The notes under the pieces are model-generated. The model did no database searches. It saw only the letters and a program-made list of their open reading frames with translations, and was not told where the DNA came from. This document shows positions 2 through 62,916 of a stretch of 64,000 nucleotides of DNA, piece after piece. The position numbers were made by a program, and so were the translations under genes. Every line of letters begins with the position of its first letter. Positions within the stretch are counted from its first letter, which is position 1. Source of the stretch: Escherichia phage phiWec179; sequence record LC739533.1. One strand, written 5' to 3'.

Positions 2-598
2 ACGGTTATCGAAGCCGATGATGAATTAGAGAAGTACGGTTTCCAAGGCTACAAAGATTACAAACGCACAGGCAAATTCTCTTACATCCTGGCGTCAATA
101 GATAAAGACAGCCTATCCACTCCAAGCATCCTCTTTAACTTCTACAAAGAAGACGGTGTATTCAAGAATCCCGATATCATTCTGATAGACGAGTCCATTG
201 GAGATTTGTGGATTGTTGAGAAGGGCAAGAAAAAAGAGGTTAAGGGTTGGGGATCTTTCTGGTTGGCCTATCAGATGCTGATGGGAGATAAAACGGATAG
301 CATCCGTCCTTACCAGGATTTTGGTATTAAGTTTGGAGATGTTTCTTGTTTCAACTTGATATCTGAATGCAAGACCCAAGCTGAACTTTTCCAGAAAGTG
401 AAAGATACATTTTATACCTGGTTCCCTGAAGGTGTTAAATTTACATCTTGGGATGGGGAAGCAGTAGAATTAACAACCGATCAATGGATCGAGACAATAT
501 TCCAACTCGTTTACATGAAACGTTGGGATAACGATAACACAACTTTTGAGAGTATGCTTCAAGCGTACATTTCACAACAGGAGATAATTAATGAGTAA
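2..598 (+). CDS. hypothetical protein, 5' end outside window
   Basis: Frame stays open from window start to stop at 598 (track ORF 206..598 is its in-frame tail); no motif recognised. Confidence 0.45.
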   Translation, partial: TVIEADDELEKYGFQGYKDYKRTGKFSYILASIDKDSLSTPSILFNFYKEDGVFKNPDIILIDESIGDLWIVEKGKKKEVKGWGSFWLAYQMLMGDKTDSIRPYQDFGIKFGDVSCFNLISECKTQAELFQKVKDTFYTWFPEGVKFTSWDGEAVELTTDQWIETIFQLVYMKRWDNDNTTFESMLQAYISQQEIINE

Positions 599-1556
599 AT
601 TAACAACAGAGCAGAAAGTAGAAATCATTAGCCTTAAAACACAAGGTCTTTCTTCTCGCCAGATCGCTGCATTAGTTCTCGGTAGCGCGACAAAGAAAAG
701 CACAGTGAACGATTTCTTGGTTCGTGAAAACTCTGCCAATGCTGGAACTCCTAAAGTTAAACCAGAAGGTCCAGTAGTTAAAATTATTGACGTTGAAACA
801 GCACCAGAAATTGCGTATACTTTCCGTCGATTCAAAGCTTTTATCTCTCCTGATCAGGTGATTCGCCGTGGTTACTTGCTGTCCTACTCTTCCGCAGATC
901 TGCGTACTGCTGAAGTTGAAGGTAAGAACTTGGCAAGCTACCCTCTGTTCGATATTGATCACACAGACGATTGGGAACTGTGTCAAGACATTTGGAAGCT
1001 TCTGGATGAAGCTGATATCGTTGTAGCTCACAACGGTGTTAAATTTGACCGTGCTTATATTAACCAGCGTTTCGCATACCACGGAATGGTTCCTCCGTCG
1101 AACTATGTTGTGGTCGATACTCTGAAAGCGGCTAAGAAACAATTCTTCTTACCGTCTAATTCTCTGAAAGAGATGGGTGCTTACTTCGAAACAGAGAGCG
1201 AAAAACTTGATAACGAAGGGTTCCCATTGTGGAAGGCTTGTTGTGAAGGTGATCGTGATGCGTTTGAACGTATGCAAACTTACAACGATGGTGATGTAGT
1301 TTCTCTGCGAGATCTGTACATTAAGATTCTGGCATGGATTCCGCAACATCCTAACGTATCTGCTTACTACGAAGATACCAAAGTTCGTTGCTCTCGTTGT
1401 GGCAGTGCACATGTGAATGTACTGGCAGATAAGAAGTACCACACAGCAGTAAGTTCTTTTGATATTATTCGTTGTGAAGATTGTGGTGGACTTTCTCGTG
1501 GACGTGTTAACAGCCGTTCCAAAGATAAGATGAAAAACACCATTGTAGGGATTTAA
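591..1556 (+). CDS. DnaQ-like (DEDD) 3'-5' exonuclease with N-terminal HTH-like region and C-terminal zinc ribbon
   Basis: Exo motifs IDVETAPE (DxE), VVAHNGVKFD (H-N..FD), YNDGD; C-terminal CSRCGS..CEDCGG; RBS caggag before ATG. Confidence 0.7.
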   Translation: MSKLTTEQKVEIISLKTQGLSSRQIAALVLGSATKKSTVNDFLVRENSANAGTPKVKPEGPVVKIIDVETAPEIAYTFRRFKAFISPDQVIRRGYLLSYSSADLRTAEVEGKNLASYPLFDIDHTDDWELCQDIWKLLDEADIVVAHNGVKFDRAYINQRFAYHGMVPPSNYVVVDTLKAAKKQFFLPSNSLKEMGAYFETESEKLDNEGFPLWKACCEGDRDAFERMQTYNDGDVVSLRDLYIKILAWIPQHPNVSAYYEDTKVRCSRCGSAHVNVLADKKYHTAVSSFDIIRCEDCGGLSRGRVNSRSKDKMKNTIVGI

Positions 1557-1562
1557 TAAGAA

Positions 1563-1584
1563 AGGGGCTTCGGCCCCTTTTTTA
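1563..1584 (+). terminator. rho-independent terminator (GGGGC-TTCG-GCCCC + T6)
   Basis: Perfect 5-bp GC stem with TTCG tetraloop followed by TTTTTT directly after stop of exonuclease gene. Confidence 0.6.
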
Positions 1585-1593
1585 ATTTAAGTG

Positions 1594-1622
1594 TTGACAT
1601 AGAGAACCAAGTGCGATACAAT
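1594..1622 (+). promoter_or_regulatory. sigma70-type promoter TTGACA-17-TACAAT
   Basis: Consensus -35 at 1594-1599, 17-nt spacer, TACAAT at 1617-1622, about 40 nt upstream of ORF 1665. Confidence 0.6.
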
Positions 1623-1664
1623 CTTTATCAAGAAGGCATATCGCCTTAACAAGAGGAGACTATC

Positions 1665-2123
1665 ATGAGTAAGAATATTATTGTTTTTCGTAACGCTGCT
1701 GATTTCCGTAATTATGCCGCAGAATCTGGTCGTAACAATGCAGCCCGTGCTTTGTATCGTCAGTTCTTACGTTTAAATAATCTGGAGCGTAACGAGCTAA
1801 TCCAGGATTCCTCTGGTTTGACAGTAGGGAAAGATAACCGTCAACAAGTACTTATCGGAGGTTGCCTGTACGGTGTGTCTGTGAACGATAAAGGTGATTG
1901 TCGTCAGTACGACACTGACTATGTTGGTCTGATTAATATCTCCCCGACTACAGGCAGAGTTCTACTGGCATTCACTAACGATTTATCTTTACACAAGAAA
2001 CCAAACTTGATCCGCACAAAAGGAAACAATGCATCTTATAACGCTGCTCTTAGCAAAGATGCTTCTGTAGAGCTTGAAAACTTTAAAATCTGGGATAACA
2101 CCACTCCAGAACAAAATTACTAA
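1665..2123 (+). CDS. hypothetical protein
   Basis: 152-aa ORF with RBS gaggag; follows promoter. Confidence 0.6.
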   Translation: MSKNIIVFRNAADFRNYAAESGRNNAARALYRQFLRLNNLERNELIQDSSGLTVGKDNRQQVLIGGCLYGVSVNDKGDCRQYDTDYVGLINISPTTGRVLLAFTNDLSLHKKPNLIRTKGNNASYNAALSKDASVELENFKIWDNTTPEQNY

Positions 2124-2132
2124 GGAGGTTGA

Positions 2133-2360
2133 ATGAGCATTACATTAACAGGTAATGAAATTTTTGAATTATTTGAAATGTTGGGTATGAACTACTCAAT
2201 CGAAAAAGATCCAGAATTATTGGACGTTAGCATCACCGTCTTAGAAGACAAAGAACTTCTTGATGATAATGGTAACGTTATGTACAAAGGTCGTGTAGCT
2301 TTCTATACAGATTACCCTGAAGAGGGTGGAGTTGGAATCCAGGAGGAAAATTATGTCTAA
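2133..2360 (+). CDS. hypothetical protein
   Basis: 75-aa ORF, RBS aaggagg. Confidence 0.5.
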   Translation: MSITLTGNEIFELFEMLGMNYSIEKDPELLDVSITVLEDKELLDDNGNVMYKGRVAFYTDYPEEGGVGIQEENYV

Positions 2361-2751
2361 TGCATTTAATGATCAAGTTGACGGACACCATTACACAGAT
2401 ATGGTAATGCAACCTATAGAGTTGGCTTATCTTGTAGGTGGCACACCTTGTTTCTGCAAGCTTGCTAAATACTCTACTCGTGTCAAGGGTGATCGCATGA
2501 TCAACTTGGACAAAGCTATTCATTGCATCGCGCTGGAAGCTACCATGATGGAAAACCATAGTTTCATGGTACAGGAAAACTACCCAGCAGCCACAAGTAA
2601 GGCCAAAACTGATCAAGCCATGTTACTGATTGACTTCTTCACAAAAGATCCGTTAATCCGCGAAGCTTTGAAGTGTATGTATTGTTCTTACTACCAAGAT
2701 GCAATGATGGCTATCCGAAAACTTAAGGAACAAATTAGTAATGGCGAATAA
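2353..2751 (+). CDS. DUF3310-like phage protein
   Basis: Start moved to ATG 2353 (RBS aggagg); VDGHHYTD..QPIEL..KYSTRVKGDRMINLDKAIHCI resembles DUF3310 pattern (from memory). Confidence 0.45.
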   Translation: MSNAFNDQVDGHHYTDMVMQPIELAYLVGGTPCFCKLAKYSTRVKGDRMINLDKAIHCIALEATMMENHSFMVQENYPAATSKAKTDQAMLLIDFFTKDPLIREALKCMYCSYYQDAMMAIRKLKEQISNGE

Positions 2752-2932
2752 CACAAAACAGTACGGAGAAGGTGAGGTTTATAAAATTTATAACCGTAAA
2801 GGGGATAAGCTTTTAGTAACTATCACCATCCCAGAAAATATGTGCAAGGCAGGTTTGGATCGCCTGTTGTTCTTTAAACACAATATTCCACCTGGTGAAT
2901 ACACAATCAAGAAGGTGCCAATTGTCAAGTAA
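2741..2932 (+). CDS. hypothetical protein
   Basis: 63-aa ORF overlapping neighbours by a few nt. Confidence 0.45.
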   Translation: MANNTKQYGEGEVYKIYNRKGDKLLVTITIPENMCKAGLDRLLFFKHNIPPGEYTIKKVPIVK

Positions 2933-2945
2933 AGAACCAAAAATA

Positions 2946-3500
2946 ATGTGGGGCGAAGGAACGCCCTGGAAGTCACAAGCAGAGTTTTACACTTATCTTC
3001 GTGGCTGTCTTCGTCAGGCTTGGATGCGTCACCCTAACAAAATCAAACTCCTGAATGCAAAACGATACAAAGCGGATCGTCTTGACAAAGATGGTAAGGT
3101 GATGTTAGATAAGAAGACTGGCTTACCGAAACAGGTTTGGCATTGTTCTTGTGAAGTGTGCGGATACACTGGAGGTATGAAAGACTTCCAAGTGGATCAT
3201 ATCCATGCAGCAAAAAACTTGCAATGTTTTGATGACATTCCTATGTTCGTTCTACGTCTGATTTATGTCAATGTGGAAGACTTACGTATGGTTTGTAAAT
3301 CTTGTAACTCTATCTTAGCTTACGCTGACAAGCAGGGCATTTCTTTCGAACAAGCAAAAGTTGAGAAAGAAGCTATTGCGATCTGCAAAGATAAGCAAGA
3401 TAAGAAATGGTTAACGAAACGAGGTATCGAACCAGCAAGTACCGTAGCAAAACGAAGAGAACAAATAGTCAAAATCCTATTGCAGGAAATCGAAAGTTAG
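2946..3500 (+). CDS. HNH endonuclease-like protein
   Basis: CSCEVCG..VDHIHAAKN..CKSCN matches HNH CxxC/DH/N/CxxC arrangement; start taken at ATG 2946 rather than upstream GTG 2895. Confidence 0.6.
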   Translation: MWGEGTPWKSQAEFYTYLRGCLRQAWMRHPNKIKLLNAKRYKADRLDKDGKVMLDKKTGLPKQVWHCSCEVCGYTGGMKDFQVDHIHAAKNLQCFDDIPMFVLRLIYVNVEDLRMVCKSCNSILAYADKQGISFEQAKVEKEAIAICKDKQDKKWLTKRGIEPASTVAKRREQIVKILLQEIES

Positions 3501-3534
3501 GTTAATATAACAATACTGGAAGAGAGGAGGGATT

Positions 3535-4152
3535 ATGAAGATAGTTTGTGATTGGGATCTGGTGGTTGCTCCACTGGATGTTGCTTGGCTGGAATGGTTG
3601 GTTAAAGTTAGTGGAGATTGTGTAGGCTTCTCCGAAGCTGTCAAGAATGTTGACTACGATCTTACTAAATACTTCCCAGGTTTCCGTGAGAAGTTTAACA
3701 TCGATCCTTACGGCTTTCTGGATAATCCCCATCTCTATGACACGATGGGATGTATCAAACCTATGGCTGACTTCTTAGAAGGTATTGTGAAAGAGGGCGA
3801 TAATGCACTTATTGCAAGTGTGACTAAAGGTGGACACCTTAGCTCAAAACACAAACATGTTTTAAGAACTTTGCCAACCATTGATTTTGGTAAAGGTTCT
3901 GGTAACGGTTTCTTTGCCACAAAAGAAAAATACCTGTTGCCTTGTGATATTGCCATAGATGATAGGGCAGAAAACCTGTTGTATTTTCCAGATCATGTTG
4001 TTAAGATTTATTACAATACGATGTATAAAGATTTGTATTTGGAAGAATTAAAAAAGAAACCAAACGTAGTTGTCACGGGTTTGTACAATCAAGCAGAAAC
4101 CTGTTGGCAGGTTTATTCAATGTTAAAAGAACGAGGAGAAATTAATGTCTAA
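3535..4152 (+). CDS. HAD-superfamily 5'(3')-deoxyribonucleotidase-like protein
   Basis: N-terminal CDWDLVV (DxDxV HAD motif I); RBS agaggagg; sits in nucleotide-metabolism cluster. Confidence 0.5.
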   Translation: MKIVCDWDLVVAPLDVAWLEWLVKVSGDCVGFSEAVKNVDYDLTKYFPGFREKFNIDPYGFLDNPHLYDTMGCIKPMADFLEGIVKEGDNALIASVTKGGHLSSKHKHVLRTLPTIDFGKGSGNGFFATKEKYLLPCDIAIDDRAENLLYFPDHVVKIYYNTMYKDLYLEELKKKPNVVVTGLYNQAETCWQVYSMLKERGEINV

Positions 4153-5134
4153 TATCAGTGCACAAGTCATCGCCCAATCCATCAACGAAGAAGGACAGAT
4201 GATCACAACTTTCGAACTGGAATATCCACGCATCATCCATTCGGAACTGATGACACACCGCCTATTCTCCCGAAACGCTGCTTCAAGCCGCGCTATTCCC
4301 GTCAAGACTTTGATTGAGATGGTTCGCAACGAACCTGCGGCACCTGTTCGATTTGGTCAACACCAACCTGGGATGCAGGATCAAGGTGTAGAGTATGATG
4401 CTCTCATTGGGGTAGGTTATTCGAGTCGTGAGTGGTGGAATTTAGCTGCACTTAGTGCGGCAAACTTTGCAGAACAAATGGCGGAAGCTGGTTACGCGAA
4501 GCAGGTTTGTAATCGCCTTCTTGAACCATTCCAAAAAATGAAGACGGTTCTGACAGCAACCGAATATGAAAACTTCTGGTGGCTACGTGATGATGCTGAT
4601 GCTGATCCGACTATTGAAGCTTTAGCCAAAATTATGTTTGAAGCCTATGAAGCTTCTACTCCAGAACTACTGGCTCCAGGTCAATGGCATACGCCTTACG
4701 TAGATCATGTCTACGAGAACATTGGTTTGGAAGGTGATGATGTTTGGGTATTCAGTGGGTATAGCACTACAGATGAAAATGGCAATACTATCATGCTGTC
4801 GCTGGAAGAAGCACTTGCAATCTCTTCTTCTTGTTGCGCACAAGTGAGCTATCGTCGTCTGAATGCAACTAAAGATAAAGCTTTGGACATTTATGGACGT
4901 TTGCTTACCGGACGTAAAGTTCACGCTTCCCCTTTTGAACATCAGGCAACCCCAATGAAAAAAATGGATTTGTCAGGCTTAAAACGACAGGAGCATGGTG
5001 TTAATATTCCTCCGTTCCCGATTTCTTGGGAACCAGGCGTTACTCATGTAGATCGTAATGGTCAATTCTGGTCGGGGAATATGAAGGGTTGGGTACAACA
5101 TCGTCAACTTTTAGACAATCATACTAAATGGTGA
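4145..5134 (+). CDS. ThyX-like (flavin-dependent thymidylate synthase family) protein
   Basis: ELMTHRLFSRNAASSRAIP resembles ThyX RHR-x7-S-x-R motif but with T in place of first R; 329 aa. Confidence 0.6.
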   Translation: MSNISAQVIAQSINEEGQMITTFELEYPRIIHSELMTHRLFSRNAASSRAIPVKTLIEMVRNEPAAPVRFGQHQPGMQDQGVEYDALIGVGYSSREWWNLAALSAANFAEQMAEAGYAKQVCNRLLEPFQKMKTVLTATEYENFWWLRDDADADPTIEALAKIMFEAYEASTPELLAPGQWHTPYVDHVYENIGLEGDDVWVFSGYSTTDENGNTIMLSLEEALAISSSCCAQVSYRRLNATKDKALDIYGRLLTGRKVHASPFEHQATPMKKMDLSGLKRQEHGVNIPPFPISWEPGVTHVDRNGQFWSGNMKGWVQHRQLLDNHTKW

Positions 5135-5230
5135 TTCGAGTAAATTCTTATTGACTTTAGTGTTAGATTTAGTGTAGTATAGCAAAACGTTGGGGGAGGT
5201 GAGATTCCCCCTTTATAAAAGGAGAAAATT

Positions 5231-5641
5231 ATGTCATTAGTAAACACTACCACTTGGGCTACCGTGAGCATGTCTACCGTTAAGTCTACCCCGATCTGGA
5301 AGCAAGAGTCAGAAAAATACCGTGGTCATATTCCTCACGATCGTCACGCAGATGTACTTCGTGCCGCTCTGGTGTTCCTTGGTATGAACGAAGATGGCAA
5401 CTTCTCTGTTGAACGTAATGTTAACATTCGTAGTAACAACGACAACAGTTTGGTTTATATCAACACAACTCTTTATACTTTTGCTGTTAAAGAAAGCTGT
5501 CCTTTCAAACATATCTACCAAAAGAATGATATTTTTCATTACGGAGATGAAGAGTTTGGCGGTTGGGGTGTGACCCACACAAAAATGGATGATTTCGGTA
5601 ATTCCTATGATCCTGCGAGAGCAGAAGATAATTCACTTTAA
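5231..5641 (+). CDS. hypothetical protein
   Basis: 136-aa ORF, RBS aaggag. Confidence 0.55.
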   Translation: MSLVNTTTWATVSMSTVKSTPIWKQESEKYRGHIPHDRHADVLRAALVFLGMNEDGNFSVERNVNIRSNNDNSLVYINTTLYTFAVKESCPFKHIYQKNDIFHYGDEEFGGWGVTHTKMDDFGNSYDPARAEDNSL

Positions 5642-5651
5642 GAGAGGGATA

Positions 5652-5897
5652 ATGACCGATAATAAATACGAAGGCTGTGAGATTGAAGTTTACTTTGATG
5701 AGACAGTAGGCTGTAATGTTACAGTTATTTTAGATACTTCCAAACGCTTATCACCAAAACGACAGGAAGCAGATCGCAAAGCTAAAGCGAAAGGTTTCCA
5801 TGATATAAATCATTTTGAAGGGTTCCTTTATGCGAACGGGCTGTTTAACGAAATGAAATTTGGATACGATGTAGACGTGCTTGGGATTCATAGTTAA
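5652..5897 (+). CDS. hypothetical protein
   Basis: Start taken at ATG 5652 (RBS agagaggga) instead of overlapping 5589. Confidence 0.5.
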   Translation: MTDNKYEGCEIEVYFDETVGCNVTVILDTSKRLSPKRQEADRKAKAKGFHDINHFEGFLYANGLFNEMKFGYDVDVLGIHS

Positions 5898-5911
5898 TAT
5901 AGGGAGGAGAA

Positions 5912-8152
5912 GTGATTCGATACGTTACTAAATCAAATGGTAAGACAGAAGAGTTCAATCCTGAAAAACTGCGTAAATGGTCTGAATTTGCAGCAGGGAA
6001 ACTGAACTGGTCGGAAATTGAATTAGAAGCTGTGAAACGTTGTTACGATGGTGTGTCTACTCGTGATTTACATAAAGCTATGATCGCTGCGTGTATTGAT
6101 AAGAAGACTCAAGCGTACAGTGATATGGCAGGTCGATTGCTTCTCGGTATGATTTACAAACAGGCTCACGGGGGATACCACAGTATCCCTTCCCTGTACA
6201 CTTTCTACCAAGATATGGTGAAGCGTGGACATTGGGCCAAGATGGACTATACCGAAGAAGAAATCAAAGAGATTGGTAAGATTGTCAAACATAACAAGAA
6301 TCTAACCTACGGTTATTCTGTTCTTCGTCAGATGGCGGATAAATACTTGGTTCGTGATGCTGTGAATGATGTTGTTCACGAGTCACCGCAATTCCTGTTT
6401 ATTGGTGTGGCAATGCGTGTTATGGAGATCCAGCCTAAAGATCGTCGTATCAACGATATCAAAAAGCTGTACACATACGTAAGTGATCTTCAGATTAACT
6501 TACCATCTCCTTATCTGACAACGTTACGTACTCCGATCAAAGGTAGCGCGTCTTGTTGTTTATTCCGTGCAGACGATACAGCAGAGTCTTTGGCTATTGC
6601 AAACTATCTGGCACACGAATATACGTTGAATAATGCAGGGATTGGTGTTAACCTCCAAACTCGTGCAACTGGACAGGGTGTTAAGAACAACCGTATCGTT
6701 CATGGTGGTCTTCTCCCTTACCTCAAGTGGATGGAAGATAGCGTAGGAGCTTCTAAACAAGCGAGTCGTGGAGGTAGTGCAACGGTTACGTTCACAATCT
6801 TGGAGCCAGATTTTGAAGATCTGATTCGACTGAAGAACCCAACCACTCCGATCGATAAGCGTGTTGATAAGCTGGATTACTCTGTTGTTGTAAACCGCTC
6901 CTTCCTTCGCCGTGCGGCTAAAGGTGAAGAGTGGATGCTTGTGAGCTGTGACGAAGCACCGGAACTTTACGAAGCATTGTACAAAAGTGAAGAAGAGTTC
7001 GATGCGGTCTACGATAAAGTTAGTCGCCGTCGCATCAAAAAGAAAATTGTTAAGGCTCGTGACCTGTTGACTGAAATCATTGTTCAACGTGCAGAAACTG
7101 GACGTATTTATATGTTCTTCGCTGACAACGTAAACAATCACAGTCCTTTCCTGGATACTGTGTATCAGTCAAACTTATGTCAGGAGATCTTTTTACCTAC
7201 TAAAGCGTTCCATAAAATGACGGATCTCTTTACTGGTGAAAACACAGAAGATCAAGAATTGGCTTTATGCTTCTTGTCCTCTATTGTTGCTGGGCGCGTT
7301 ACGCCGGAGCAATATGAAGATGTTGCGTATTATACTGTATTGACGATTGATAACGTTATTGAGACGATGGAATATCCGTTCAAACATAACGAGATCACAG
7401 CTAAGGCTCGCCGCTCTATCGGCGTAGGTATTACAAACCTTGCACATTACTTGGCAAGCAACTTTGTAACCTATTCTGATCCTTATGCGAAGAAGCTGAT
7501 GCATGAATTAGCAGAACGTCATTACTTCTGGTTGGCACAAGCCTCTCTGCGCTTGGCGAAAGAGAAAGGTAATGCCGAGTGGATGGATAAAACTAAGTGG
7601 CCTCAAGGTTGGCTCCCTATTGACACCTACGCTAAAGCAGTAGATACTATTGGGGACTTTGAACTGAAGCTGGATTGGGAAGGCTTACGTGCTGGTATCA
7701 TTGAACAAGGTGGTATCCGTAACAGTGTGCTTGCAGCAGTGGCCCCGAACGAATCAAGTAGCTTGGTGAGTAATACGACCAACTCACTCTACCCTGTACG
7801 TGACACGATCATGTACAAACAGAGTCAGAAAGGTAACGTACTGTTTATCGTACCAGATTACGAAAAACTGAAAATGTTCTATCAGTCGGCGTGGGATACC
7901 CCGTCTAAAGATATTGCCGAGATGTATGGACTCTTCACTAAGTTTACGGATCAGGGTATCTCCTGTGATGCTTGGTTAGATTATTCCAAAATGGAAGGTG
8001 GACGTTTATCAGTGAAAGCCGAGATGCAATTTATCTTAACATTTGCAAAGCTTGGTGGTAAATCTCTTTACTACCTGAACAGCCGAACCAAATCAGCGGA
8101 ATCTATGGCCCAAGAAGATTCTGATGGTGGTTGTGAAGCTTGTAAAATGTAG
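5912..8152 (+). CDS. nrdA: ribonucleoside-diphosphate reductase large subunit (class Ia)
   Basis: 746 aa; N-terminal ATP-cone-like VTKSNGKTEEFNPEKL; length and conserved blocks typical of NrdA; GTG start with RBS agggaggag. Confidence 0.9.
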   Translation: MIRYVTKSNGKTEEFNPEKLRKWSEFAAGKLNWSEIELEAVKRCYDGVSTRDLHKAMIAACIDKKTQAYSDMAGRLLLGMIYKQAHGGYHSIPSLYTFYQDMVKRGHWAKMDYTEEEIKEIGKIVKHNKNLTYGYSVLRQMADKYLVRDAVNDVVHESPQFLFIGVAMRVMEIQPKDRRINDIKKLYTYVSDLQINLPSPYLTTLRTPIKGSASCCLFRADDTAESLAIANYLAHEYTLNNAGIGVNLQTRATGQGVKNNRIVHGGLLPYLKWMEDSVGASKQASRGGSATVTFTILEPDFEDLIRLKNPTTPIDKRVDKLDYSVVVNRSFLRRAAKGEEWMLVSCDEAPELYEALYKSEEEFDAVYDKVSRRRIKKKIVKARDLLTEIIVQRAETGRIYMFFADNVNNHSPFLDTVYQSNLCQEIFLPTKAFHKMTDLFTGENTEDQELALCFLSSIVAGRVTPEQYEDVAYYTVLTIDNVIETMEYPFKHNEITAKARRSIGVGITNLAHYLASNFVTYSDPYAKKLMHELAERHYFWLAQASLRLAKEKGNAEWMDKTKWPQGWLPIDTYAKAVDTIGDFELKLDWEGLRAGIIEQGGIRNSVLAAVAPNESSSLVSNTTNSLYPVRDTIMYKQSQKGNVLFIVPDYEKLKMFYQSAWDTPSKDIAEMYGLFTKFTDQGISCDAWLDYSKMEGGRLSVKAEMQFILTFAKLGGKSLYYLNSRTKSAESMAQEDSDGGCEACKM

Positions 8153-8158
8153 CAATAC

Positions 8159-8180
8159 AGGGGCTTCGGCCCCTTTTTTA
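8159..8180 (+). terminator. rho-independent terminator (GGGGC-TTCG-GCCCC + T6)
   Basis: Same hairpin as at 1563, immediately after nrdA stop. Confidence 0.55.
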
Positions 8181-8193
8181 TTGAGGAGCGATT

Positions 8194-8532
8194 ATGAGCA
8201 CACTTATAGTTTTACCTGGAGTAACCCCAATCTACCGACCTGGGTTTAAGCCTCTGTTGCTTTGCCCTGAAGATTTCACCCCTACTTGGTGTCACCATTA
8301 TCTTGGTGGACGTGAAATAGCTAACATGCAGATTTGGGAATCTTTTTATCCAGAAGCCACGGCTTACGCAATAACAAGAGCAAGAAGTGAAGAAACAGTG
8401 ACTGTTATACTTGGTAGAAGCGTATGGGAAGCATTAGAAGGTTTCTACCGGAGTAATGGTTTTGAGGAACAAGATATTTTAAACTTAAAAGGTTTTTGTG
8501 AAATAGTGGAGGATTTAAATGGCAGCAATTAA
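8194..8532 (+). CDS. hypothetical protein
   Basis: 112-aa ORF between nrdA and nrdB. Confidence 0.5.
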   Translation: MSTLIVLPGVTPIYRPGFKPLLLCPEDFTPTWCHHYLGGREIANMQIWESFYPEATAYAITRARSEETVTVILGRSVWEALEGFYRSNGFEEQDILNLKGFCEIVEDLNGSN

Positions 8533-9604
8533 TTTACATAATGAGACTTACAAAACAGGTAAATATCCGGTATTCATGGGTGAGCAATTGGGGATCTTTG
8601 ACTCAATTAATGTGACGTATCCTGAAATGCACCGTCTGTATAAACTTCAGAAAGCCCAAGATTGGGATGAGAATGAAGTGGATCTTAGTCAGACCCGTAA
8701 AGACTTTGTAGCGTGTTCAAAAAACAACTACGATGTTATGATCAAGAACTTGTCGTTCCAGTGGGAGAATGATTCTCTGGCAAAATCCATCATCACTTTG
8801 TTCTCTCCGTTTTTGAGCAACAATGAAGCATGTGCTATGATGATGAAGCAGAGTGAGATGGAAGTGCTTCACGCTCTAACTTACTCGGAGATTGTTCGCC
8901 AGTGTACTCCAAACCCTGTAGAAGTTATTGATCAGATTATGGAGAACGACAAGATCTTCAACCGTATGGGTATCATTGCAGAGATCATGGGAGAGTTGGA
9001 AGAAGCAGGTCACAAATATGCACTTGGTCTGATTGAAGCTGATGATAAACTACGTTTGCTGGTCATGAAAGGTCTGGTAGCCCTGATTGGTCTGGAAGGT
9101 ATCCAGTTTATCTCTTCTTTCTCGGCAACGTTCGCCTTGGCAGAACAGCAACTGTTTGTAGGTGCTTGTAAGCTGATTCAGAAAATCATGTTGGATGAAA
9201 TCCTGCATGTTAAAATGGACTATGCTGTCATTGATGCTCTGATGCAAGATCCTGTGTGGAAGAAGATCTACGAAGATAACATCGAAGAACTTACAACTAT
9301 TCTGGATACAGTTATCGCTCAAGAAGAGCAGTGGTGTGATTATCTGTTTAGCGAAGGACGTTTTATCGTTGGGCTGAATGCTGAACTGTCCCGTCAATGG
9401 GTGTACTTCAATGCGGCTCCAATTTATCGTCGTTTGAAGATGAAGCACAGCTTTAAATCTCCTAAACAGAACCCACTACCTTGGATGGACATTTGGTTAA
9501 ACCCAGATCAGATTCAAGCAGCGGCGCAAGAGATCCAAGTTACAGCTTACAAACTGAACTCGGCTAACAAAGATGTTTCTGATGATATGGAGTTTGACTT
9601 CTAA
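8519..9604 (+). CDS. nrdB: ribonucleoside-diphosphate reductase small subunit
   Basis: 361 aa with diiron-carboxylate NrdB-like blocks (EVLHALTYSEIVRQ), C-terminal acidic tail; RBS gtggagga. Confidence 0.9.
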   Translation: MAAINLHNETYKTGKYPVFMGEQLGIFDSINVTYPEMHRLYKLQKAQDWDENEVDLSQTRKDFVACSKNNYDVMIKNLSFQWENDSLAKSIITLFSPFLSNNEACAMMMKQSEMEVLHALTYSEIVRQCTPNPVEVIDQIMENDKIFNRMGIIAEIMGELEEAGHKYALGLIEADDKLRLLVMKGLVALIGLEGIQFISSFSATFALAEQQLFVGACKLIQKIMLDEILHVKMDYAVIDALMQDPVWKKIYEDNIEELTTILDTVIAQEEQWCDYLFSEGRFIVGLNAELSRQWVYFNAAPIYRRLKMKHSFKSPKQNPLPWMDIWLNPDQIQAAAQEIQVTAYKLNSANKDVSDDMEFDF

Positions 9605-9822
9605 TGAAACTTAAATGTGTAGGATTGATCGACACATTCAAAGACGTATTTGACAAAGGGGCTTCCTATGAAGCCTCGGAGTTAAAGAACGGTTTTTGTG
9701 ATGTGCATGGTAAACGTCTTAAGAAAAACGGAGAACCTTGGCTTGGTGTTATGTCTTGTGGTCATATTGTGGTTAACGGTGTTGCAAAGTTTGAAATCGT
9801 AAAGGAGGAAGATAATGAGTGA
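9604..9822 (+). CDS. hypothetical protein
   Basis: 72-aa ORF with ATGA overlap to nrdB stop. Confidence 0.5.
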   Translation: MKLKCVGLIDTFKDVFDKGASYEASELKNGFCDVHGKRLKKNGEPWLGVMSCGHIVVNGVAKFEIVKEEDNE

Positions 9823-9958
9823 GTTTAGTTTTTGCCCTATTTGTGGTGGTACAGGTAATGCCTTAATTAGTGCGGAGCAGTACAGCCCGTGTTGGCATTG
9901 TTCTGGTAGTGGTTTGGTAGTTGAAGAAAACAAAGAGGAGGAAAAAGATGGGGATTGA
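9815..9958 (+). CDS. small zinc-ribbon protein (47 aa)
   Basis: Not in track (<60 aa); MSEFSFCPICGG..CWHCSG with two CxxC pairs; strong RBS aaaggagg 7 nt upstream. Confidence 0.4.
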   Translation: MSEFSFCPICGGTGNALISAEQYSPCWHCSGSGLVVEENKEEEKDGD

Positions 9959-10274
9959 TATCGAATGGAAGATGGTGCAAGGCGCACCATATAAGAAATG
10001 GGAAGAAGTGTTTAAAGGCGATCCGCAGATTGAGGATCAATTCGATGGGGATTTCAACTGGTTTCTTTACGAAGGTATTGGGTTAGTGAGTGTCTCCCCG
10101 TGGTTTGATGCAGATCCTGAAGATTGTGTCTTTGGTATTGAACTTGCGTCAGGATGCAGCGCACGGGCAATAGATCTCACAAGCTTGGATAAAAAAGCAA
10201 ACGAGATCTATTTTGAACTGCTTAATAAGTATAATATTGAGACTGAAACGTTAGTATCACAAAACGTTTGGTAA
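9948..10274 (+). CDS. hypothetical protein
   Basis: Start at ATG 9948 with RBS gaggagg. Confidence 0.5.
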   Translation: MGIDIEWKMVQGAPYKKWEEVFKGDPQIEDQFDGDFNWFLYEGIGLVSVSPWFDADPEDCVFGIELASGCSARAIDLTSLDKKANEIYFELLNKYNIETETLVSQNVW

Positions 10275-10283
10275 GGAGAACTA

Positions 10284-11276
10284 ATGCGCTATCTGGTAAC
10301 AGGTGGTCTTGGTTTTATTGGGAGCGCCGTTGTGCGCTCTCTTTGTCAAGATCCTAATAACGAAGTTTTTGTCATTGATAAAATGGGCTACGCAGCCGAT
10401 ATTGAAAATGTAGGGGATATCACTCACGCCAAACTAAGCATGACGGATTTGGCAAACGAAGCACAGGTCAAAAGTTTGGTGGTAGAATGCAACCCTGATT
10501 TCATTATTCACTTAGCGGCAGAGAGTCATGTGGACAACTCTATCAAAAATCCACGAGCTTTCATCGACTCCAATATCATCGGTACATATAATTTACTGGA
10601 AGCTGCGAGACTACTCCCAAGGAATAAGCTGAAGATGTTTGTACACGTCTCCACAGACGAAGTGTACGGCGATATGGCAGACTCTGGCGCTCCCTTTACC
10701 GAAGAGACAGCATATACTCCTTCAAGCCCGTACAGCGCGTCCAAGGCGGCTTCTGATCATCTTGTGAAAGCTTGGCACCGTACTTATGACTTGCCTGTAG
10801 TGATAACTAATTGCTCCAATAATTTTGGACCTTACCAATACCCTGAAAAATTGATTCCAAAAGTAATCACAAGCATCTTGACGAACAAAGAAATCCCAGT
10901 GTATGGTAAAGGTGATCAGGTACGAGACTGGCTTTTTGTTGAGGACCATGCACGAGCTATTCTTCAGGTAGCTTCTGGCGGCGAACCTGGACAAACTTAC
11001 AACGTAGGTACACGTAATCCTAAAACCAATATGGAGATCATCTATATGATTTGTGATTACATGGATGCCGTACACCCGCAAAGTGGAACCTACCCCTCTT
11101 CAAGTTTAATAACTTTTGTTGAAGATCGTAAAGGACATGACTTGCATTATGAAATCAACCCTGCTAAGATTGAATCTGAACTGGGTTGGAGTGCAAACTC
11201 CACATTTGAACAAGACCTTTACTCTACGATAGAGTGGTATTTAAACAACCCTCAATGGTGGAGAGAAAAGATTTAA
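10284..11276 (+). CDS. rfbB: dTDP-glucose 4,6-dehydratase
   Basis: TGGLGFIGS Rossmann motif, YSASK catalytic YxxxK, about 330 aa SDR-extended. Confidence 0.9.
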
Positions 11277-11284
11277 GGAGGGTT

Positions 11285-12163
11285 ATGAAAGGTATTATTT
11301 TGGCTGGAGGAAGTGGAACCCGCCTACATCCAGTAACACGCAGTGTGAGCAAGCAATTGCTCCCTGTGTATGACAAACCTATGATTTATTATCCTTTATC
11401 AGTCTTGATGTTGGCAGATATTAAGGATATCTTAATCATCACAACCCCAGGCGATCAGGAAGATTTTGAGTATCTTCTTGGAGATGGATCTATGTTTGGG
11501 ATAAAGATCACTTACGCAATGCAGTCTGAACCACGAGGTCTTGCAGATGCTTTCATCATTGGTAAAGATTTCATTGGGGAAGATTCTGTTGCCCTTATTT
11601 TAGGGGATAACTTGTTCTTCGGACAAAGTTTCGGAAAACTTCTTATCCAAGCCAGCGAAATGGTGGATGTTTGGGGTGGAGCTTGTATCTTCGGGTATCT
11701 GGTGAAAGATCCTGAACGATTCGGTGTTGTTGAGTTTGGAAGTAATCGCCAAGCTATCTCTATTGAAGAGAAACCGGAACATCCTAAATCAGACTATGCT
11801 GTCACGGGTTTGTATTTCTATGACAACTCTGTTGTTCAACGTGCATTGGAAGTAACCCCTTCCGAGCGTGGAGAACTGGAGATCACAGATATCAATCGCA
11901 GCTACCTCGAAGACAGGAAGTTACAAGTTGAAGTTCTTGGAAGAGGATTCACTTGGTTGGATACAGGGACACACGCCAGTCTAATGGAAGCAGGTCAATT
12001 CGTGCAGACTATTGAGAACTGCCAAGGATTGAAGATTGCGTGCCTGGAAGAGATCGCTTTCAAAAAAGGGTGGATTTCTTTAGAGACTTTGGTGTATCAT
12101 GGCAACTCATTGAAGAAAACAGAGTACGGGCAATATTTGTTAAAATTAGCGGAGGGTAAATGA
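11285..12163 (+). CDS. rfbA: glucose-1-phosphate thymidylyltransferase
   Basis: [37 protein letters not shown]-terminus typical of RmlA; start at ATG 11285. Confidence 0.9.
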
Positions 12164-12720
12164 AAATAAAAGAATTAAGTATTCCTGGTCTGGTTGTCTT
12201 TAAACCTCAAGTTTACAAAGATGATCGTGGTTACTTCACGGAGACGTTTAACGAGAAGATTTACGAAGAGGTTATTGGCAAACAAACGTTTGTTCAGGAT
12301 AACCATTCATTCTCTACTTTAGGTGTTCTTCGCGGAATGCACTTTCAAGTAAACAATCCGCAAGGTAAGCTTGTACGTTGCACACGAGGTGAAGTTTTTG
12401 ACGTGGCTGTAGATCTTCGTGAAGGTAGTCCAACCTTCGGACAATGGGAAGGTGTGATTCTTAGTGGGCGTAACAATAAACAGTTTTGGATTCCACCTGG
12501 CTTTGCACATGGTTTTGTTGTAACCTCTTATGAAGCCAACTTTGAATACAAGTGCACCAACTACTACGATCCGGCATCTGAACGTAGTTTGTTGTGGAAC
12601 GATCCTACTGTGAATATTGATTGGGGTTTTGATATGATTTTCAATGATGAGAATTTTGTACCTATCATTTCGGAAAAGGATGCACAAGCTAAAACACTGA
12701 AGGAGCTTATGGAATCATGA
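12160..12720 (+). CDS. rfbC: dTDP-4-dehydrorhamnose 3,5-epimerase
   Basis: 186 aa; [18 protein letters not shown] cupin block typical of RmlC. Confidence 0.85.
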
Positions 12721-13559
12721 AAACATATTTAGTATTGGGTGGTAATGGTCAATTAGGTCAGGCACTGCGTAAAGTGGTGCCGGAGAATGTGACTTTGGTG
12801 TATCCAGAAAAGCGTGTAGATATCACCAGTTTCGAAGCTGTAAGAAAAGCGATCATGGACACCCCAAATATTAACGGTGTTATCAACTGTGCGGCATACA
12901 CTGCGGTGGACAAAGCAGAGACAGATGTTGATGCAGCTATGGCTGTAAATTTACACGGGGCAGCTAATATTGCTGCCTTCTGTAAGGCTTGGGATATTGA
13001 CATGGTGCATATTTCTACTGACTATGTGTTCAACAGCGATAAACCGTTGTTCCATCAGGATGAACCCAACCCTATCAATGTTTACGGGTTATCTAAAAGT
13101 TTGGGTGAAGCTGCTGTTCGTGGTATCTACCATAAAGCTTTTATTATCCGCACGGCTTCTGTGTATAGCGAGTTTGGTAACAACTTCCTGAAGACTATGG
13201 TGTCTCGTTACAACGATGGTCAAAGAGACTTCTCGGTAGTTGCAGATCAAACATCTCGACCAACTTATGCCCCAGATTTGGCTAAGATGATTTTCCAAGT
13301 GTTGGAAACAGGATATAACACCCGTACTTTGCATTACGCTGGGAACATCACTGTTTCGTGGCACCAGTTCGCAAAAATGATATTGACACGTATGCCTGAA
13401 TCTGTTATTATACACCCGACCTCTGCTGCAACCTATAATTCGGCAGCGATGCGACCAGCAAAGTCTATACTAATTACGTCTGGTTGGAACGAACCTTCAA
13501 GCGTCGGACAAGGTATTGAAGAATCTTTAGCAGTATTACTTAATAAGGAGAGAGCATGA
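12717..13559 (+). CDS. rfbD: dTDP-4-dehydrorhamnose reductase
   Basis: LVLGGNGQLGQAL Rossmann motif, about 280 aa, directly after rfbC. Confidence 0.85.
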   Translation: MKTYLVLGGNGQLGQALRKVVPENVTLVYPEKRVDITSFEAVRKAIMDTPNINGVINCAAYTAVDKAETDVDAAMAVNLHGAANIAAFCKAWDIDMVHISTDYVFNSDKPLFHQDEPNPINVYGLSKSLGEAAVRGIYHKAFIIRTASVYSEFGNNFLKTMVSRYNDGQRDFSVVADQTSRPTYAPDLAKMIFQVLETGYNTRTLHYAGNITVSWHQFAKMILTRMPESVIIHPTSAATYNSAAMRPAKSILITSGWNEPSSVGQGIEESLAVLLNKERA

Positions 13560-47512: not shown

Positions 47513-47870
47513 GATAATCTCCTCTCTTGGTTTCATGACAAACATCCTAATTCTCAACGAGGAACATCTTACGATCAATCCTCGGCAATTACAATTCATT
47601 TATCATCGCTTTTCCCTATCAATTATTCTATATATACCTGTTATTTTTGACACCCCCTTTGGTCAAATATTAATCGGCAAAATATCTGGGGGTACTCTAT
47701 AAAATGATGCCCCCTGTTCCTGCAATTTATCGAGGAGAATATCATTCGACTATCATCGGCAAAGAGACAGAAAAGCCTTTGGTAGCAAGGATTTATGGCG
47801 AGTACGTCAGGACTGCTTAACGCGAATTTTTCGGCCCCTCCACTTCTGCGAGCCGGAATCCTCAAATATC

Positions 47871-47902
47871 AATGAGAATAATTATCATTATCATTCGTAT
47901 TC
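47871..47902. repeat. Fur-box-like ATTATC hexamer repeat; left copy of about 31-bp imperfect direct repeat
   Basis: aatgagaataattatcattatcattcgtattc; 28/32 identical to 62407-62438; core matches 19-bp Fur-box consensus as recalled at about 16/19. Confidence 0.5.
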
Positions 47903-48289
47903 AATAACTTAGGCGATCTTTTCCCCTGCTATAAGGTCGGGCCTAACTTAACCATCACTTTTCAAACAATCCTTTATCAATCAACTACTTAACAACCTAA
48001 ACATATGATTACTACGGTGTAAAGGTGCCGCCCATAACAGACTACCTATAAAATAGATGAGAATGATTATTATTCAGACAATTCTTACAACAAATCGACC
48101 AACAAATCAAGAATTTTCTTATTTTTATTCACGTTTAAGAGAACGTGCTCAACATTCCGCTACGCGTAACGGTTCGCCCCCAAAAGATTAGCCTTTGCTT
48201 TCCTGTATATTTATACACTATGTGCAAGGTGTCGCTACACGCTCGCCTTGCCCCGCATAATCCTTCACTGTGCTAATGATTTCATAGTG

Positions 48290-48445
48290 CAACAATAACA
48301 CTTATTATTATATTACGCTTAATTATTCTTACATACAATGCTAATAATAAGCCAGCGTAATTAGTGTAAGCGTAATACGCTTGCAATAATTGCAAGCTAC
48401 ATAATCACAAGAAATAACCATCACCGATGGTTATGATTGTGGGGG
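48290..48445. repeat. cluster of perfect palindromes in ORF-free region
   Basis: aagcgtaatacgctt and cttgcaataattgcaag adjacent; ataaccatcaccgatggttat; later atgataatggttatcat at about 48791. Confidence 0.5.
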
Positions 48446-48539
48446 TGTAGTTGGCTTATTATTAGCTCGCTACGTGTCCGGCGTAGCGTGCTAATGATGA
48501 CTCTATGAATGATTCATTTTGCAATTATTACAGTCTTCA

Positions 48540-48770
48540 CTATTTCGGCAATAGTTATTATTTTAATGGTTTCATTTGTTATCGTTAGTTAGTTGGTTGT
48601 TTTGTCGTGTTATCGTTATCTTGCTTAGTATTCATCATGGTTTGATTGTTTGTCGTTATCAATCATCTTTCTATTATTCCTTTGATTATGATTAGTTTGC
48701 TTATTGTTTTAAGTCGTTAGTTGGTTAGTTGTTGCGAACTGTTATCAACATTATAGTTATGCACTTATAT
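48540..48770. repeat. AT-rich iteron region (GTTATCGTT / TTAGTTGGTT repeats), candidate origin
   Basis: Repeated gttatcgtt, ttagttggtt, TTATCAACA (DnaA-box-like, one mismatch to TTATCCACA); no ORF of 60 aa or more in any frame across 47.6-49.05 kb. Confidence 0.4.
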
Positions 48771-49011
48771 TGCATAGATACGCAAGGGTAGATGATAATG
48801 GTTATCATTGCACTGGAAAGGAAGAAAACAGCCTTTTTCGGTTGTTTGTTGTTGGTTGTTGATCGATTTTAACCGCTCTAAATAGCTCTCTAATAGCCTG
48901 TTGCCCTGGGGTGTATGGTTATTCGTTTAATGGTTGATTAGCTCGATACCGCGATCTATTCAGTTTTGTTCTGTGTCGGTTTTTCATAGGCGGAATCTAT
49001 CAACATTGTTC

Positions 49012-49042
49012 GGGCAAAAAGAAAGGGCGCTTTGTGCGCCCT
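49012..49042 (-). terminator. rho-independent terminator closing the leftward small-gene array
   Basis: AGGGCGC-tttgt-GCGCCCT hairpin with T-tract on minus strand, just downstream of ORF 49057..49476. Confidence 0.5.
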
Positions 49043-49056
49043 TGTTTTGTTGTCAA

Positions 49057-49550: not shown

Positions 49551-49616
49551 TAGGCGATAGCGCATTATTTACATTTCTTTACGTTAAAGGGCGCTTAGTG
49601 CGCCCCTTGTACAATC

Positions 49617-62098: not shown

Positions 62099-62133
62099 TT
62101 GACAAGCCCAGGGATCGGGCTTATACTGTTTTA
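62099..62133 (+). promoter_or_regulatory. orphan sigma70-type promoter TTGACA-17-TATACT
   Basis: Consensus -35 at 62099-62104, 17-nt spacer holding an AGCCC/GGGCT inverted repeat, -10 TATACT; no downstream ORF of 60 aa or more. Confidence 0.5.
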
Positions 62134-62140
62134 CATACAG

Positions 62141-62240
62141 AAGAGGAAGCGCCACCCCACGGCGTAAAGGCGGGGCTAACATACCAGGGGCACTGGTTGG
62201 AAGGTCGATCGCCGGGAGGCTGGGCGCTATATATTTGTAA
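62141..62240 (+). ncRNA. candidate small structured RNA downstream of orphan promoter
   Basis: GC-rich, self-complementary stretches after the promoter; no credible ORF; ends uncertain. Confidence 0.25.
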
Positions 62241-62351
62241 AGAAATGTAAAGATAAAATAATCGCTTGCTTTCCTGGCTGGATCTGTTATTCTTATTACA
62301 TGGCGAGGGGACACGGGAGCGCGAGACAATCACCGGACCTGCCCGTCATTC

Positions 62352-62378
62352 TGCAAATGAGAAAAATTCTCATTTGCA
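62352..62378. promoter_or_regulatory. perfect 27-bp palindrome, operator-like
   Basis: tgcaaatgagaa aaa ttctcatttgca, 12-bp arms. Confidence 0.5.
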
Positions 62379-62405
62379 AATAAGACTCATTCGCATTTAA
62401 TAATT

Positions 62406-62438
62406 GAATGAGAATCATTCTCATTCTCATTCGTATTT
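62406..62438. promoter_or_regulatory. perfect 21-bp palindrome plus right copy of about 31-bp direct repeat
   Basis: gaatgagaat c attctcattc (62406-62426); 62407-62438 is 28/32 identical to 47871-47902. Confidence 0.5.
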
Positions 62439-62448
62439 CGATTTTAAG

Positions 62449-62463
62449 TGAGAATAATTCTCA
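62449..62463. promoter_or_regulatory. perfect 15-bp palindrome, operator-like
   Basis: tgagaat a attctca; third site sharing the TGAGAA(T) half-site. Confidence 0.45.
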
Positions 62464-62477
62464 TTTCGGTAATTTTC

Positions 62478-62540
62478 ACGTAAACTTTAGAATTTGCTTT
62501 TCAACTTTCACTTTTGTAAAAGCAAAAAAACTTTAAATAC
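62478..62540. repeat. direct repeat copy 1 (about 62 bp)
   Basis: acgtaaactttagaattt..tcacttttgtaaa..aaactttaaata. Confidence 0.5.
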
Positions 62541-62616
62541 CTGGTGCGCGCGACTTTTTAAAAAATTTTTCTCGGTTTTTTGCTTTGAAATCTGGCCCAC
62601 CAATTTGAGATAGTGT

Positions 62617-62680
62617 ACGTAAACTTTAGAATTTGGTTTTGGATTCTCACTTTTGTAAACTCGTAAAAAGTTTAAATAAT
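62617..62680. repeat. direct repeat copy 2 (about 62 bp)
   Basis: acgtaaactttagaattt..tcacttttgtaaa..aaagtttaaata; identical 18-nt and 13-nt blocks with copy 1. Confidence 0.5.
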
Positions 62681-62808
62681 TGTAGGGATTTTGAGATAGT
62701 TTGCTTGTAAGGTTTGAGATAATCCTTCCCGAAGATGTTACGCAGCCTACAGCCTACCTGAATGCTCGTCTAACGAGATTAACTCTAAAAGATGAGTGTT
62801 GGTGTAGC

Positions 62809-62845
62809 TAAAGAGAAAAGGCTCTCTACGGTGTTGTAGGAGCCT
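62809..62845 (-). terminator. rho-independent terminator for NADAR gene
   Basis: GGCTCCTAC/GTAGAGAGCC hairpin (one bulge) with T-rich tract on minus strand. Confidence 0.5.
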
Positions 62846-62916
62846 TATTTCTGTGGCACAAAGTTGACGTATTCTTTTTAAAAACGAATTTTTTCAAAAT
62901 ATCACGAATATCGCCT

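Follow-up and report, generated by a model that had tools for sequence, protein, structure and literature searches.

Clustered Fur-type boxes in the predicted terminal repeat and in conserved non-coding DNA of Escherichia phage phiWec179

Introduction

Fur boxes are the textbook operators of bacterial iron genes, and Fur is abundant in the cell. Such operators also occur on phage DNA: the stx1 promoter of Shiga-toxin prophages is Fur-repressed. Other host factors work at phage cis elements, as IHF does at lambda cosB and DnaA, through its boxes, at P1 oriR. Here we describe Fur-type boxes in two non-coding regions of Escherichia phage phiWec179, analyzed over a stretch of 64 kb (LC739533.1) that we call the window throughout. 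A first-pass annotation had flagged one 19-mer in it, at 47874-47892, as a Fur-box-like site.

On bacterial DNA, Fur clusters consist of overlapping sites at offsets of 6 (or 3) bp that form hexamer arrays of the F-F-x-R type, and sites of 12-26 bits were all shifted in the work of Chen et al. (2007; PMC2189734). For phage T5, the first-step-transfer shear point was calculated to lie at ~9618, and the function of the T5 repeats was held to be beyond guessing; DnaA boxes were discussed there, but Fur was not (Davison, bioRxiv 10.1101/866236). Our literature searches returned no report tying Fur to the T5 injection stop signal (iss) or to rV5-like phages, none calling the T5 repeats Fur boxes, and none of clustered top-scoring Fur boxes in the terminal repeat or a cis-acting non-coding region of a lytic phage. 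The element type, the Fur box, is known; what is new in the predicted operators described here is their context, namely the genome ends and the cis-acting non-coding DNA of lytic phages.

Results

High-scoring Fur-type boxes are concentrated in two non-coding gaps

The window is 98.6-100% identical to Escherichia phage phiWec181, and phAPEC8 is a relative. The phage is a Phapecoctavirus (Stephanstirmvirinae), that is, a lytic E. coli myovirus of the phAPEC8/phiWec181 kind with a genome of ~150 kb. From ~28.2 kb to the window end, the genes are nearly all small and on the minus strand.

The flagged 19-mer (GAGAATAATTATCATTATC) lies in the window's largest non-coding gap, 47600-49056. It matches the Fur consensus GATAATGATAATCATTATC at 16 of 19 positions on the plus strand, as the first-pass annotation had it, and even at 17 of 19 on the minus strand; shuffled sequences predict 0.04 matches with three or fewer mismatches per window. 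A second site of the ATTCTC type had been placed at 62412-62430, in another non-coding gap (62100-62916). Its ATTCTC string and its 14 of 19 matches are real, but the coordinates were off by 2 nt: gagaatcattctcattctc sits at 62410-62428 (14/19 on the plus and 15/19 on the minus strand), whereas 62412-62430 in register gives only 3-4/19. On the minus strand, 62410-62428 reads GAGAAT-GAGAAT-G-ATTCTC, an F-F-x-R hexamer layout in which position 3 of the hexamer has G instead of T.

We scored the window with a palindromic matrix of 19 columns, built from 13 E. coli K-12 Fur regions that had been footprinted or confirmed by electrophoretic mobility shift assay (coordinates from Table 3 of Chen et al., 2007, PMC2189734; sequences from NC_000913.3). 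The matrix has the consensus AATGATAATCATTATCATT and a content of 16.9 bits, and the leave-one-out scores of the 13 real E. coli sites range from 9.4 to 23.7 bits with a mean of 18.2. Seven sites in the window reached 19 bits or more:

47871-47889: Fur box, 26.0 bits
47877-47895: Fur box, 23.5 bits
48056-48074: Fur box GATGAGAATGATTATTATT, 19.3 bits
48791-48809: Fur box GATGATAATGGTTATCATT, 20.8 bits
62356-62374: Fur box, 20.0 bits
62407-62425: Fur box, 24.5 bits
62447-62465: Fur box AGTGAGAATAATTCTCATT, 20.3 bits

All seven are confined to the two non-coding gaps, the two largest of the phage, as is every one of the window's nine top scores. Under a first-order Markov null for the whole window, the maximum score was 15.7 +/- 2.1 bits, and 0.95 sites of at least 15 bits were expected where we observed 11. 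A null trained on the two AT-rich gaps gave 0.007 expected sites of at least 19 bits against the seven seen, and more than one such site arose in 0 of 20,000 simulations. Genome-wide, all but one of the sites of at least 15 bits fall in the two non-coding regions; the ~90 kb beyond the window, taken from phiWec181, hold one. A matrix score so far beyond chance marks the flagged site as a member of a larger family that had been only partly noticed before. The matrix scan on which the first-pass annotation had staked its Fur-box reading thus came out in favor of that reading, with a best score of 26.0 bits, above every E. coli site in the matrix. That annotation understated the case: it overlooked that there are at least seven strong boxes, that some of them lie in the predicted terminal repeat, that they are conserved and that the T5 iss has homologous arrays.

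The phage boxes agree with the E. coli matrix at all high-information positions. The only systematic departure from the consensus is GAGAAT for GATAAT, which falls in the least informative half-site column (0.35 bit), and the ATTCTC hexamer is also present in the footprinted fecI, fhuA and fepB sites. Overlapping sites lie 6 bp apart at 47871/47877/47883, at 62373/62379 and at 62407/62413. The predicted box in this phage has the form AATGAGAATnATT(A/C)TCATT, in at least seven boxes plus weaker overlapping copies at 6-bp offsets. A repeat finder that used no Fur seed grouped five TGAGAATnATTCTCA-like palindromes, at 47873, 48058, 62358, 62409 and 62449. Unseeded expectation maximization returned a diffuse AT-rich motif (38 sites, r = 0.88 with the Fur matrix) and no clean rediscovery; a k-mer count was clearer, with AATGAGAA and ATGAGAAT as the commonest 8-mers in the two non-coding regions.

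The genome's only other strong matrix match, AATAATAATTATTTTCTTT (21.1 bits), lies at 134169-134187 of phiWec181 (LC739534.1), in the divergent intergenic region between the tRNA-side and the rightward gene blocks. It may be mere AT-rich DNA.

Cluster 1 lies in and beside the predicted terminal repeat

The first gap contains the following features in addition to the single boxes listed above:

47818-48149: predicted direct terminal repeat of 332 bp (the physical genome ends), from alignment to the left direct terminal repeat (DTR-L) of phi92
47871-47901: Fur-box array 1, GAGAAT-A-ATTATC-ATTATC-ATTCGT, with sites at 47871 (26.0 bits), 47877 (23.5 bits) and 47883 (10.8 bits)
48291-48312: lower-scoring Fur-like sites that overlap (15.2 and 16.4 bits), in the gap that holds array 1

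The terminal repeat was placed by alignment of six genomes. In phi92, sequence homologous to 47814-47911 falls within the annotated left direct terminal repeat (343 bp), and several Phapecoctavirus records start near window position 48148 and carry two copies of the segment. Within the predicted repeat, array 1 is 53 bp off the inner edge and the 48056-48074 box is 75 bp off the outer edge. The repeat diverges fast, and its conserved islands in the six-genome alignment are its two edges, array 1 and the 48056-48074 box. Array 1 is conserved in phiWec181, phAPEC8, nepoznato, ZCKP1, phi92 and JohannJBalmer, and the phi92 orthologue of the 48056 box includes a perfect 7-1-7 Fur box (TGATAATGATTATCA). 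From phage to phage, the hexamers of the arrays are rearranged with the 6-bp phase kept; the counterparts of array 1 read GCGAAT-GAGAAT-A-ATTATC-ATTCGT in phAPEC8 and GAGAAT-A-ATTATC-ATTTGC-ATTATC in phi92. The 48791-48809 box, ~640 bp beyond the terminal repeat, is identical in phiWec181, phAPEC8, nepoznato and ZCKP1.

We also observed that both edges of the repeat fall in a G(T/G)GCT|YAAC motif (47810-47825, ACTGCT|TAACGCG; 48141-48156, ACGTGCT|CAACATT). This motif is kept from Phapecoctavirus to phi92 and is a candidate terminase cutting motif.

Cluster 2 adjoins a conserved non-coding element

The second gap carries a conserved element directly upstream of a longer run of boxes:

62099-62352, plus strand: conserved non-coding element, ~250 nt, directly upstream of array 2
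62099-62127, plus strand: promoter P1, TTGACA-N17-TATACT, near-consensus sigma-70
62237-62251, plus strand: CpxR-type box GTAAAGAAATGTAAA, fitting the CpxR consensus
~62269-62297, plus strand: promoter-like element P2, TTGCTT-N17-TATTCT
62356-62397: Fur-box array 2a, with sites at 62356 (20.0 bits), 62373 (11.8 bits) and 62379 (16.1 bits)
62407-62431: Fur-box array 2b, with sites at 62407 (24.5 bits) and 62413 (14.7 bits), containing the second site of the first-pass annotation

The first box starts a few nucleotides past the ...CCCGTCATTCTGCA end of the conserved element and ~56 bp downstream of P2, and the 62356 site is part of a 27-nt near-palindrome (TGCAAATGAGAAAAATTCTCATTTGCA). This junction recurs. 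In six of seven further lineages (phages of Klebsiella, Salmonella, Pectobacterium, Serratia and Proteus), the element is directly followed by one to three boxes of more than 18 bits; in CR9, the box beside the element scores just 16.5 bits and three stronger boxes follow. PVP-SE1 and SSE121 keep a single box at the element.

The conserved element was found in 231 phage records. Its copies in Phapecoctavirus and Justusliebigvirus are nearly the same, and in Vequintavirinae and their relatives the identity is ~70-75%. The P1 hexamers are conserved in seven lineages, with a G+C-rich spacer that varies. The element could be ruled out as a small gene, since relatives differ by 1-nt homopolymer indels and it is therefore not coding. 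Its minimum free energy z-scores are +0.18 and +0.93, and RNAalifold gave weak covariation, consisting of one double change (an ACCAG...CTGGT hairpin) plus GC/GU switches in long-range helices. A tRNA scan of the window found none, Rfam returned no matches over the whole window at the gathering threshold, and its matches to this second region were at chance level (E ~0.6). The element may be an undescribed phage non-coding RNA or a transcription-activated origin.

The CpxR-type box GTAAAGAAATGTAAA fits the CpxR consensus GTAAA-N5-GTAAA. Identical copies lie at 62237-62251 on the plus strand and 49568-49582 on the minus strand, two in the window where 0.19 would be expected. Both precede a sigma-70 promoter by 15-18 nt, and the spacers of these promoters are rich in G+C; one promoter is P2 and the other is TTGACA-N17-TATATT upstream of the gene starting at 49476. 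The box is kept in 12 of the 15 rV5/phi92-type loci fetched, and three such boxes lie in the first 12 kb of T5 (AY543070, positions 3089, 5080 and 7519). These putative boxes suggest envelope-stress-responsive phage promoters.

The clusters persist among relatives, and other phages carry Fur-type boxes in the layout of classical operators

Both clusters persist in all the Stephanstirmvirinae and Vequintavirinae genomes examined: they are kept in phiWec181, phAPEC8, Mt1B1_P17, nepoznato, ZCKP1, phi92, JohannJBalmer and KP13-16, and also in PVP-SE1, SSE121, CR9, POP15, ChuuTotoro and Mydo. Flanking identity falls to ~70%, and the substitutions within boxes swap one good Fur hexamer for another (GAGAAT, GATAAT, GCGAAT, GCAAAT). 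By similarity search, more than 200 records of rV5/phi92-like phages and more than 500 of T5-like phages have homologous regions.

Furthermore, an unrelated phage contig of ~50% G+C (L006; IMGVR_UViG_3300028388_002117), with a large terminase distantly like that of Salmonella phage ZCSE2, carries at least eight boxes of 21-26.7 bits within 2.6 kb (10941-13553). Some of them overlap TTGTAA-N17-TATCAT promoters, beside repeated TTGTAACA motifs. This contig represents a third phage lineage with predicted Fur-type operators. In Salmonella phage misterkot (L008), overlapping boxes of 21.5 and 25.4 bits at 1868-1892 lie 18-40 bp upstream of the pre-early gene misterkot_2, and iss-type arrays are present at 2393-2569. 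The putative boxes of L006 and misterkot have the layout of classical operators.

The form AATGAGAATnATT(A/C)TCATT is present in at least 120 IMG/VR contigs, some of them 100-350 kb long; prophage or host fragments are possibly among these contigs. Fur-type boxes may be widespread in phage genomes.

Array 2 is homologous to the T5 injection stop signal

Window segment 62355-62465 matched T5-like phages in a similarity search. The reciprocal search landed on the annotated injection stop signal in the left terminal repeat of T5, and on 535 T5-like records. Scored with the same matrix, the T5 region (AY587007) contains:

9473-9491: 21.5 bits, DR-C copy 1 / palindrome E
9577-9595: 26.7 bits, DR-C copy 3 / palindrome G
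9612-9636: sites of 20.5 and 21.0 bits, DR-C copy 4 / palindrome I

The calculated shear point at ~9618 falls within the 9612-9636 array. We then compared all open reading frames (ORFs) of at least 40 aa from T5 positions 1-12000, which cover the terminal repeat plus ~1.8 kb, with the whole phage genome by tblastn. The best E value was 0.02, and no T5 protein of this segment, A1 and A2 included, had a detectable counterpart. With no detectably shared protein encoded in these 12 kb, a host protein is the simplest common reader of the arrays.

Bacteria carry the same 19-mer beside iron genes

At least 120 bacterial genome contigs, which span many phyla, contain the exact 19-mer AATGAGAATnATTCTCATT; the genes that it precedes include fur, feoA and those for TonB receptors and FecI-type sigma factors. 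We scanned 150 ORFs starting within 300 bp on either side of it against Pfam, and observed the FUR family (8 ORFs), TonB-receptor Plug (8), iron-type ABC binding proteins (8-9), FeoA (6), ECF sigma factor (6), ZnuA (4), and FTR1, Peripla_BP_2, ZIP and AhpC (2 each). The FUR family thus makes up 5% of the flanking ORFs, a figure taken without a matched control; fur genes account for ~0.1% of bacterial genes or fewer. This enrichment of iron genes near the 19-mer indicates that the phage-type box is a sequence that bacteria use as a Fur-family operator.

Other repeats and promoters in the window

Between 50320 and 61351, the minus strand holds at least 11 copies of an early-gene module with a TTGACA-N17-TAAGAT-type promoter. 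A conserved G+C-rich hairpin (GGGCGGCAATGGTGCCGC) follows ~10 nt past the promoter, at the transcript 5' end, and each small early gene apparently has its own promoter-hairpin copy. Downstream of array 2, a pair of 62-nt direct repeats of 84% identity occupies 62478-62539 and 62617-62678. The second repeat is preceded by a good plus-strand promoter (TTGAGA-N16-TAGAAT) aimed into a minus-strand gene for a NADAR-domain protein. Three TTTGAGATA(A/G) repeats lie at 62605-62730, and such repeats also occur near the right edge of the T5 terminal repeat (AY543070, ~10120-10150).

Discussion

By sequence, the identification of the sites as Fur boxes is strongly supported. The two conserved clusters probably serve as operators for host Fur, a view that we hold with modest confidence, and the flagged site is the strongest of their boxes. 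During infection, dimers of Fe2+-Fur would bind the arrays and spread along the phased hexamers until 47871-47901 (~30 bp) and 62356-62465 (~110 bp) were covered, and scarce iron would release the block. For the consequence, we tentatively propose that bound Fur might gate transcription by host RNA polymerase starting in or crossing the control regions, with rightward read-through from P1/P2 as the clearest candidate. Through such a gate, the phage would read the iron state of its host. It is the operator layout in L006 and misterkot that leads us to favor an iron-gated transcription block; a role at the genome ends or in injection ranks second in our view, and a Fur decoy third.

Several points weigh against this interpretation. 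The case for Fur operators is drawn entirely from sequence, with a consensus-seeded matrix built from just 13 sites, and the bacterial-context test had heuristic ORF calls and no matched control. In consensus scans of the window, no box overlapped a convincing sigma-70 promoter of a protein-coding gene, and the gene that comes first after the terminal repeat, on its downstream side, is served by a separate promoter ~280 bp away. Promoters that we proposed manually on the boxes (TTGAAT-N18-TATTCT and similar) were weak and not conserved. The terminal-repeat location, together with the T5 homologues at the shear point, suggests a genome-end function rather than gene control. The steady preference of the phage sites for GAGAAT could reflect a different protein, and although FUR was not among the top 25 of the 51 Pfam families matched by 138 window ORFs, that ranking leaves room for a weak FUR match.

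The boxes could instead be cis elements for terminase cutting, end protection or a T5-like stop, with the likeness to Fur sites incidental or with Fur merely architectural. Two arrays do sit in the predicted terminal repeat, where they belong to the small number of conserved blocks and lie 53 and 75 bp from the edges; the T5 homologues are annotated within the iss as DR-C copies and as palindromes E, G and I, with the shear point inside 9612-9636; and TTGAGATA repeats lie near these regions in both T5 and the phage. The same boxes, however, recur at 62356-62465, which is 14.2 kb away from the terminus, and at 48791, 640 bp beyond the repeat, and in Vequintavirinae they are tied to the conserved non-coding element and not to an end. 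They are not uniquely located at cleavage sites, as terminase recognition of the pac or cos type would have them. Nor does any protein of the T5 12 kb, A1 and A2 included, have a detectable counterpart in the phage. Chance convergence on all the high-information Fur positions is improbable, and the identical sequence is an operator of the bacterial iron regulon. We consider an end signal of this kind rather unlikely. More speculative, and in our judgment a long shot, is a reading in which Fe-Fur on the DR-C/palindrome arrays would be part of the T5 iss. Together with the adjacent T5 DnaA boxes and the CpxR-type boxes of both phage groups, the Fur arrays would form a host-factor checkpoint at the genome ends of large lytic enterobacterial phages, and the rV5/phi92-like arrays would gate DNA entry, first transcription or replication by iron.

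A titration role, in which rising genome copies soak up Fur, derepress host iron uptake and sparing, and so feed iron-dependent ribonucleotide reductases, seems to us a little less likely than the end signal. Multicopy Fur boxes derepress Fur-regulated reporters, which is the principle of the Fur titration assay; the phage boxes are numerous, very strong and outside promoters; and the window encodes class Ia ribonucleotide reductase subunits and a glutaredoxin, with an anaerobic ribonucleotide reductase elsewhere in the genome. Fixed positions are not required of a decoy; in six of seven further lineages, however, the first box directly adjoins the conserved element, and PVP-SE1 and SSE121 retain only one box there. 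T5, moreover, degrades host DNA early (as annotated for A1), so derepression of host genes would be no help to it. Less probable again is that TGAGAATnATTCTCA is the operator of a phage regulator, or of another host protein, that recognizes a Fur-like palindrome. The G at hexamer position 3 (GAGAAT) is consistent in most phage copies, and the phage has many small early proteins without assigned function; but orthologous positions alternate freely between GAGAAT and canonical GATAAT/ATTATC, and the motif occurs in phage families among which no shared pre-early proteins could be detected. Neither a FUR-family protein nor any other shared candidate turned up, and a tblastn search of the phage with the N-terminal 115 aa of E. 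coli Fur gave noise only. The phage-regulator alternative in the first-pass annotation is thus left unsupported. On half-site spacing, we also rejected the consensus sequences of ArgR, Lrp, IHF and Zur. Finally, chance AT-rich palindromes, or RNA hairpins or terminators with no protein partner, are effectively refuted. The regions are AT-rich (37-39% G+C), and a terminator scan flags a weak hairpin with a T-rich tail at 62405-62433. Against this stand the composition-matched null (0.007 against seven seen), direct-repeat hexamers in the arrays that cannot pair, conservation in sequence rather than in pairing, and AU-rich stems that lack the proper U-tracts of intrinsic terminators.

If Fur binds these boxes, the phages sense or exploit the iron status of the host through the host's own repressor. 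The T5 iss repeats, called "bewildering" and without explanation for decades, would gain a candidate and testable protein partner in Fur. Cocktails for phage therapy and biocontrol often include phages of these groups, and iron availability could affect them as well.

Among described systems, the T5 iss, with the direct repeats C and the palindromes E, G and I of its Repeat Region 3, has homology to the phage arrays that BLAST can detect, for example T5 AATGAGAATCATTATCATTTGCATT against phi92 AATGAGAATAATTATCATTTGCATT. In both, the arrays lie in large untranslated regions tied to terminal repeats, and TTGAGATA and GTAAA-N5-GTAAA motifs are held in common. In T5, however, the repeat is 10.1 kb long, and the arrays lie within it, ~500-650 bp from its inner edge and next to four pairs of DnaA boxes, whereas the present phage has a ~332-bp repeat, no A1/A2 homologues and no convincing DnaA boxes, only scattered DnaA-like 9-mers with one mismatch. 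We know of no two-step injection for it. As with IHF at cosB and DnaA at oriR, an abundant host DNA-binding protein would be recruited to a packaging or replication control region; to our knowledge, Fur differs in being a metal-sensing repressor for which no such role is known.

The E. coli Fur operators (fecI, fhuA, entC, sodA and iucA) resemble the phage boxes in the consensus at informative positions, the 7-1-7 core and the 6-bp overlaps, with matrix scores equal to or lower than those of the phage boxes, and the fecI (AATGATAACCATTCTCATA) and fhuA (TATAATAATCATTCTCGTT) sites contain the phage-type ATTCTC hexamer. The predicted phage operators differ in lying in a terminal repeat or downstream of a non-coding promoter element, and not over the -35/-10 region of an iron-uptake gene. 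The stx1 promoter shares with them a host Fur box on phage DNA, which there provides iron-dependent control. It is a single operator at a cargo-gene promoter of a temperate phage, whereas here multiple arrays occupy non-coding DNA of strictly lytic phages.

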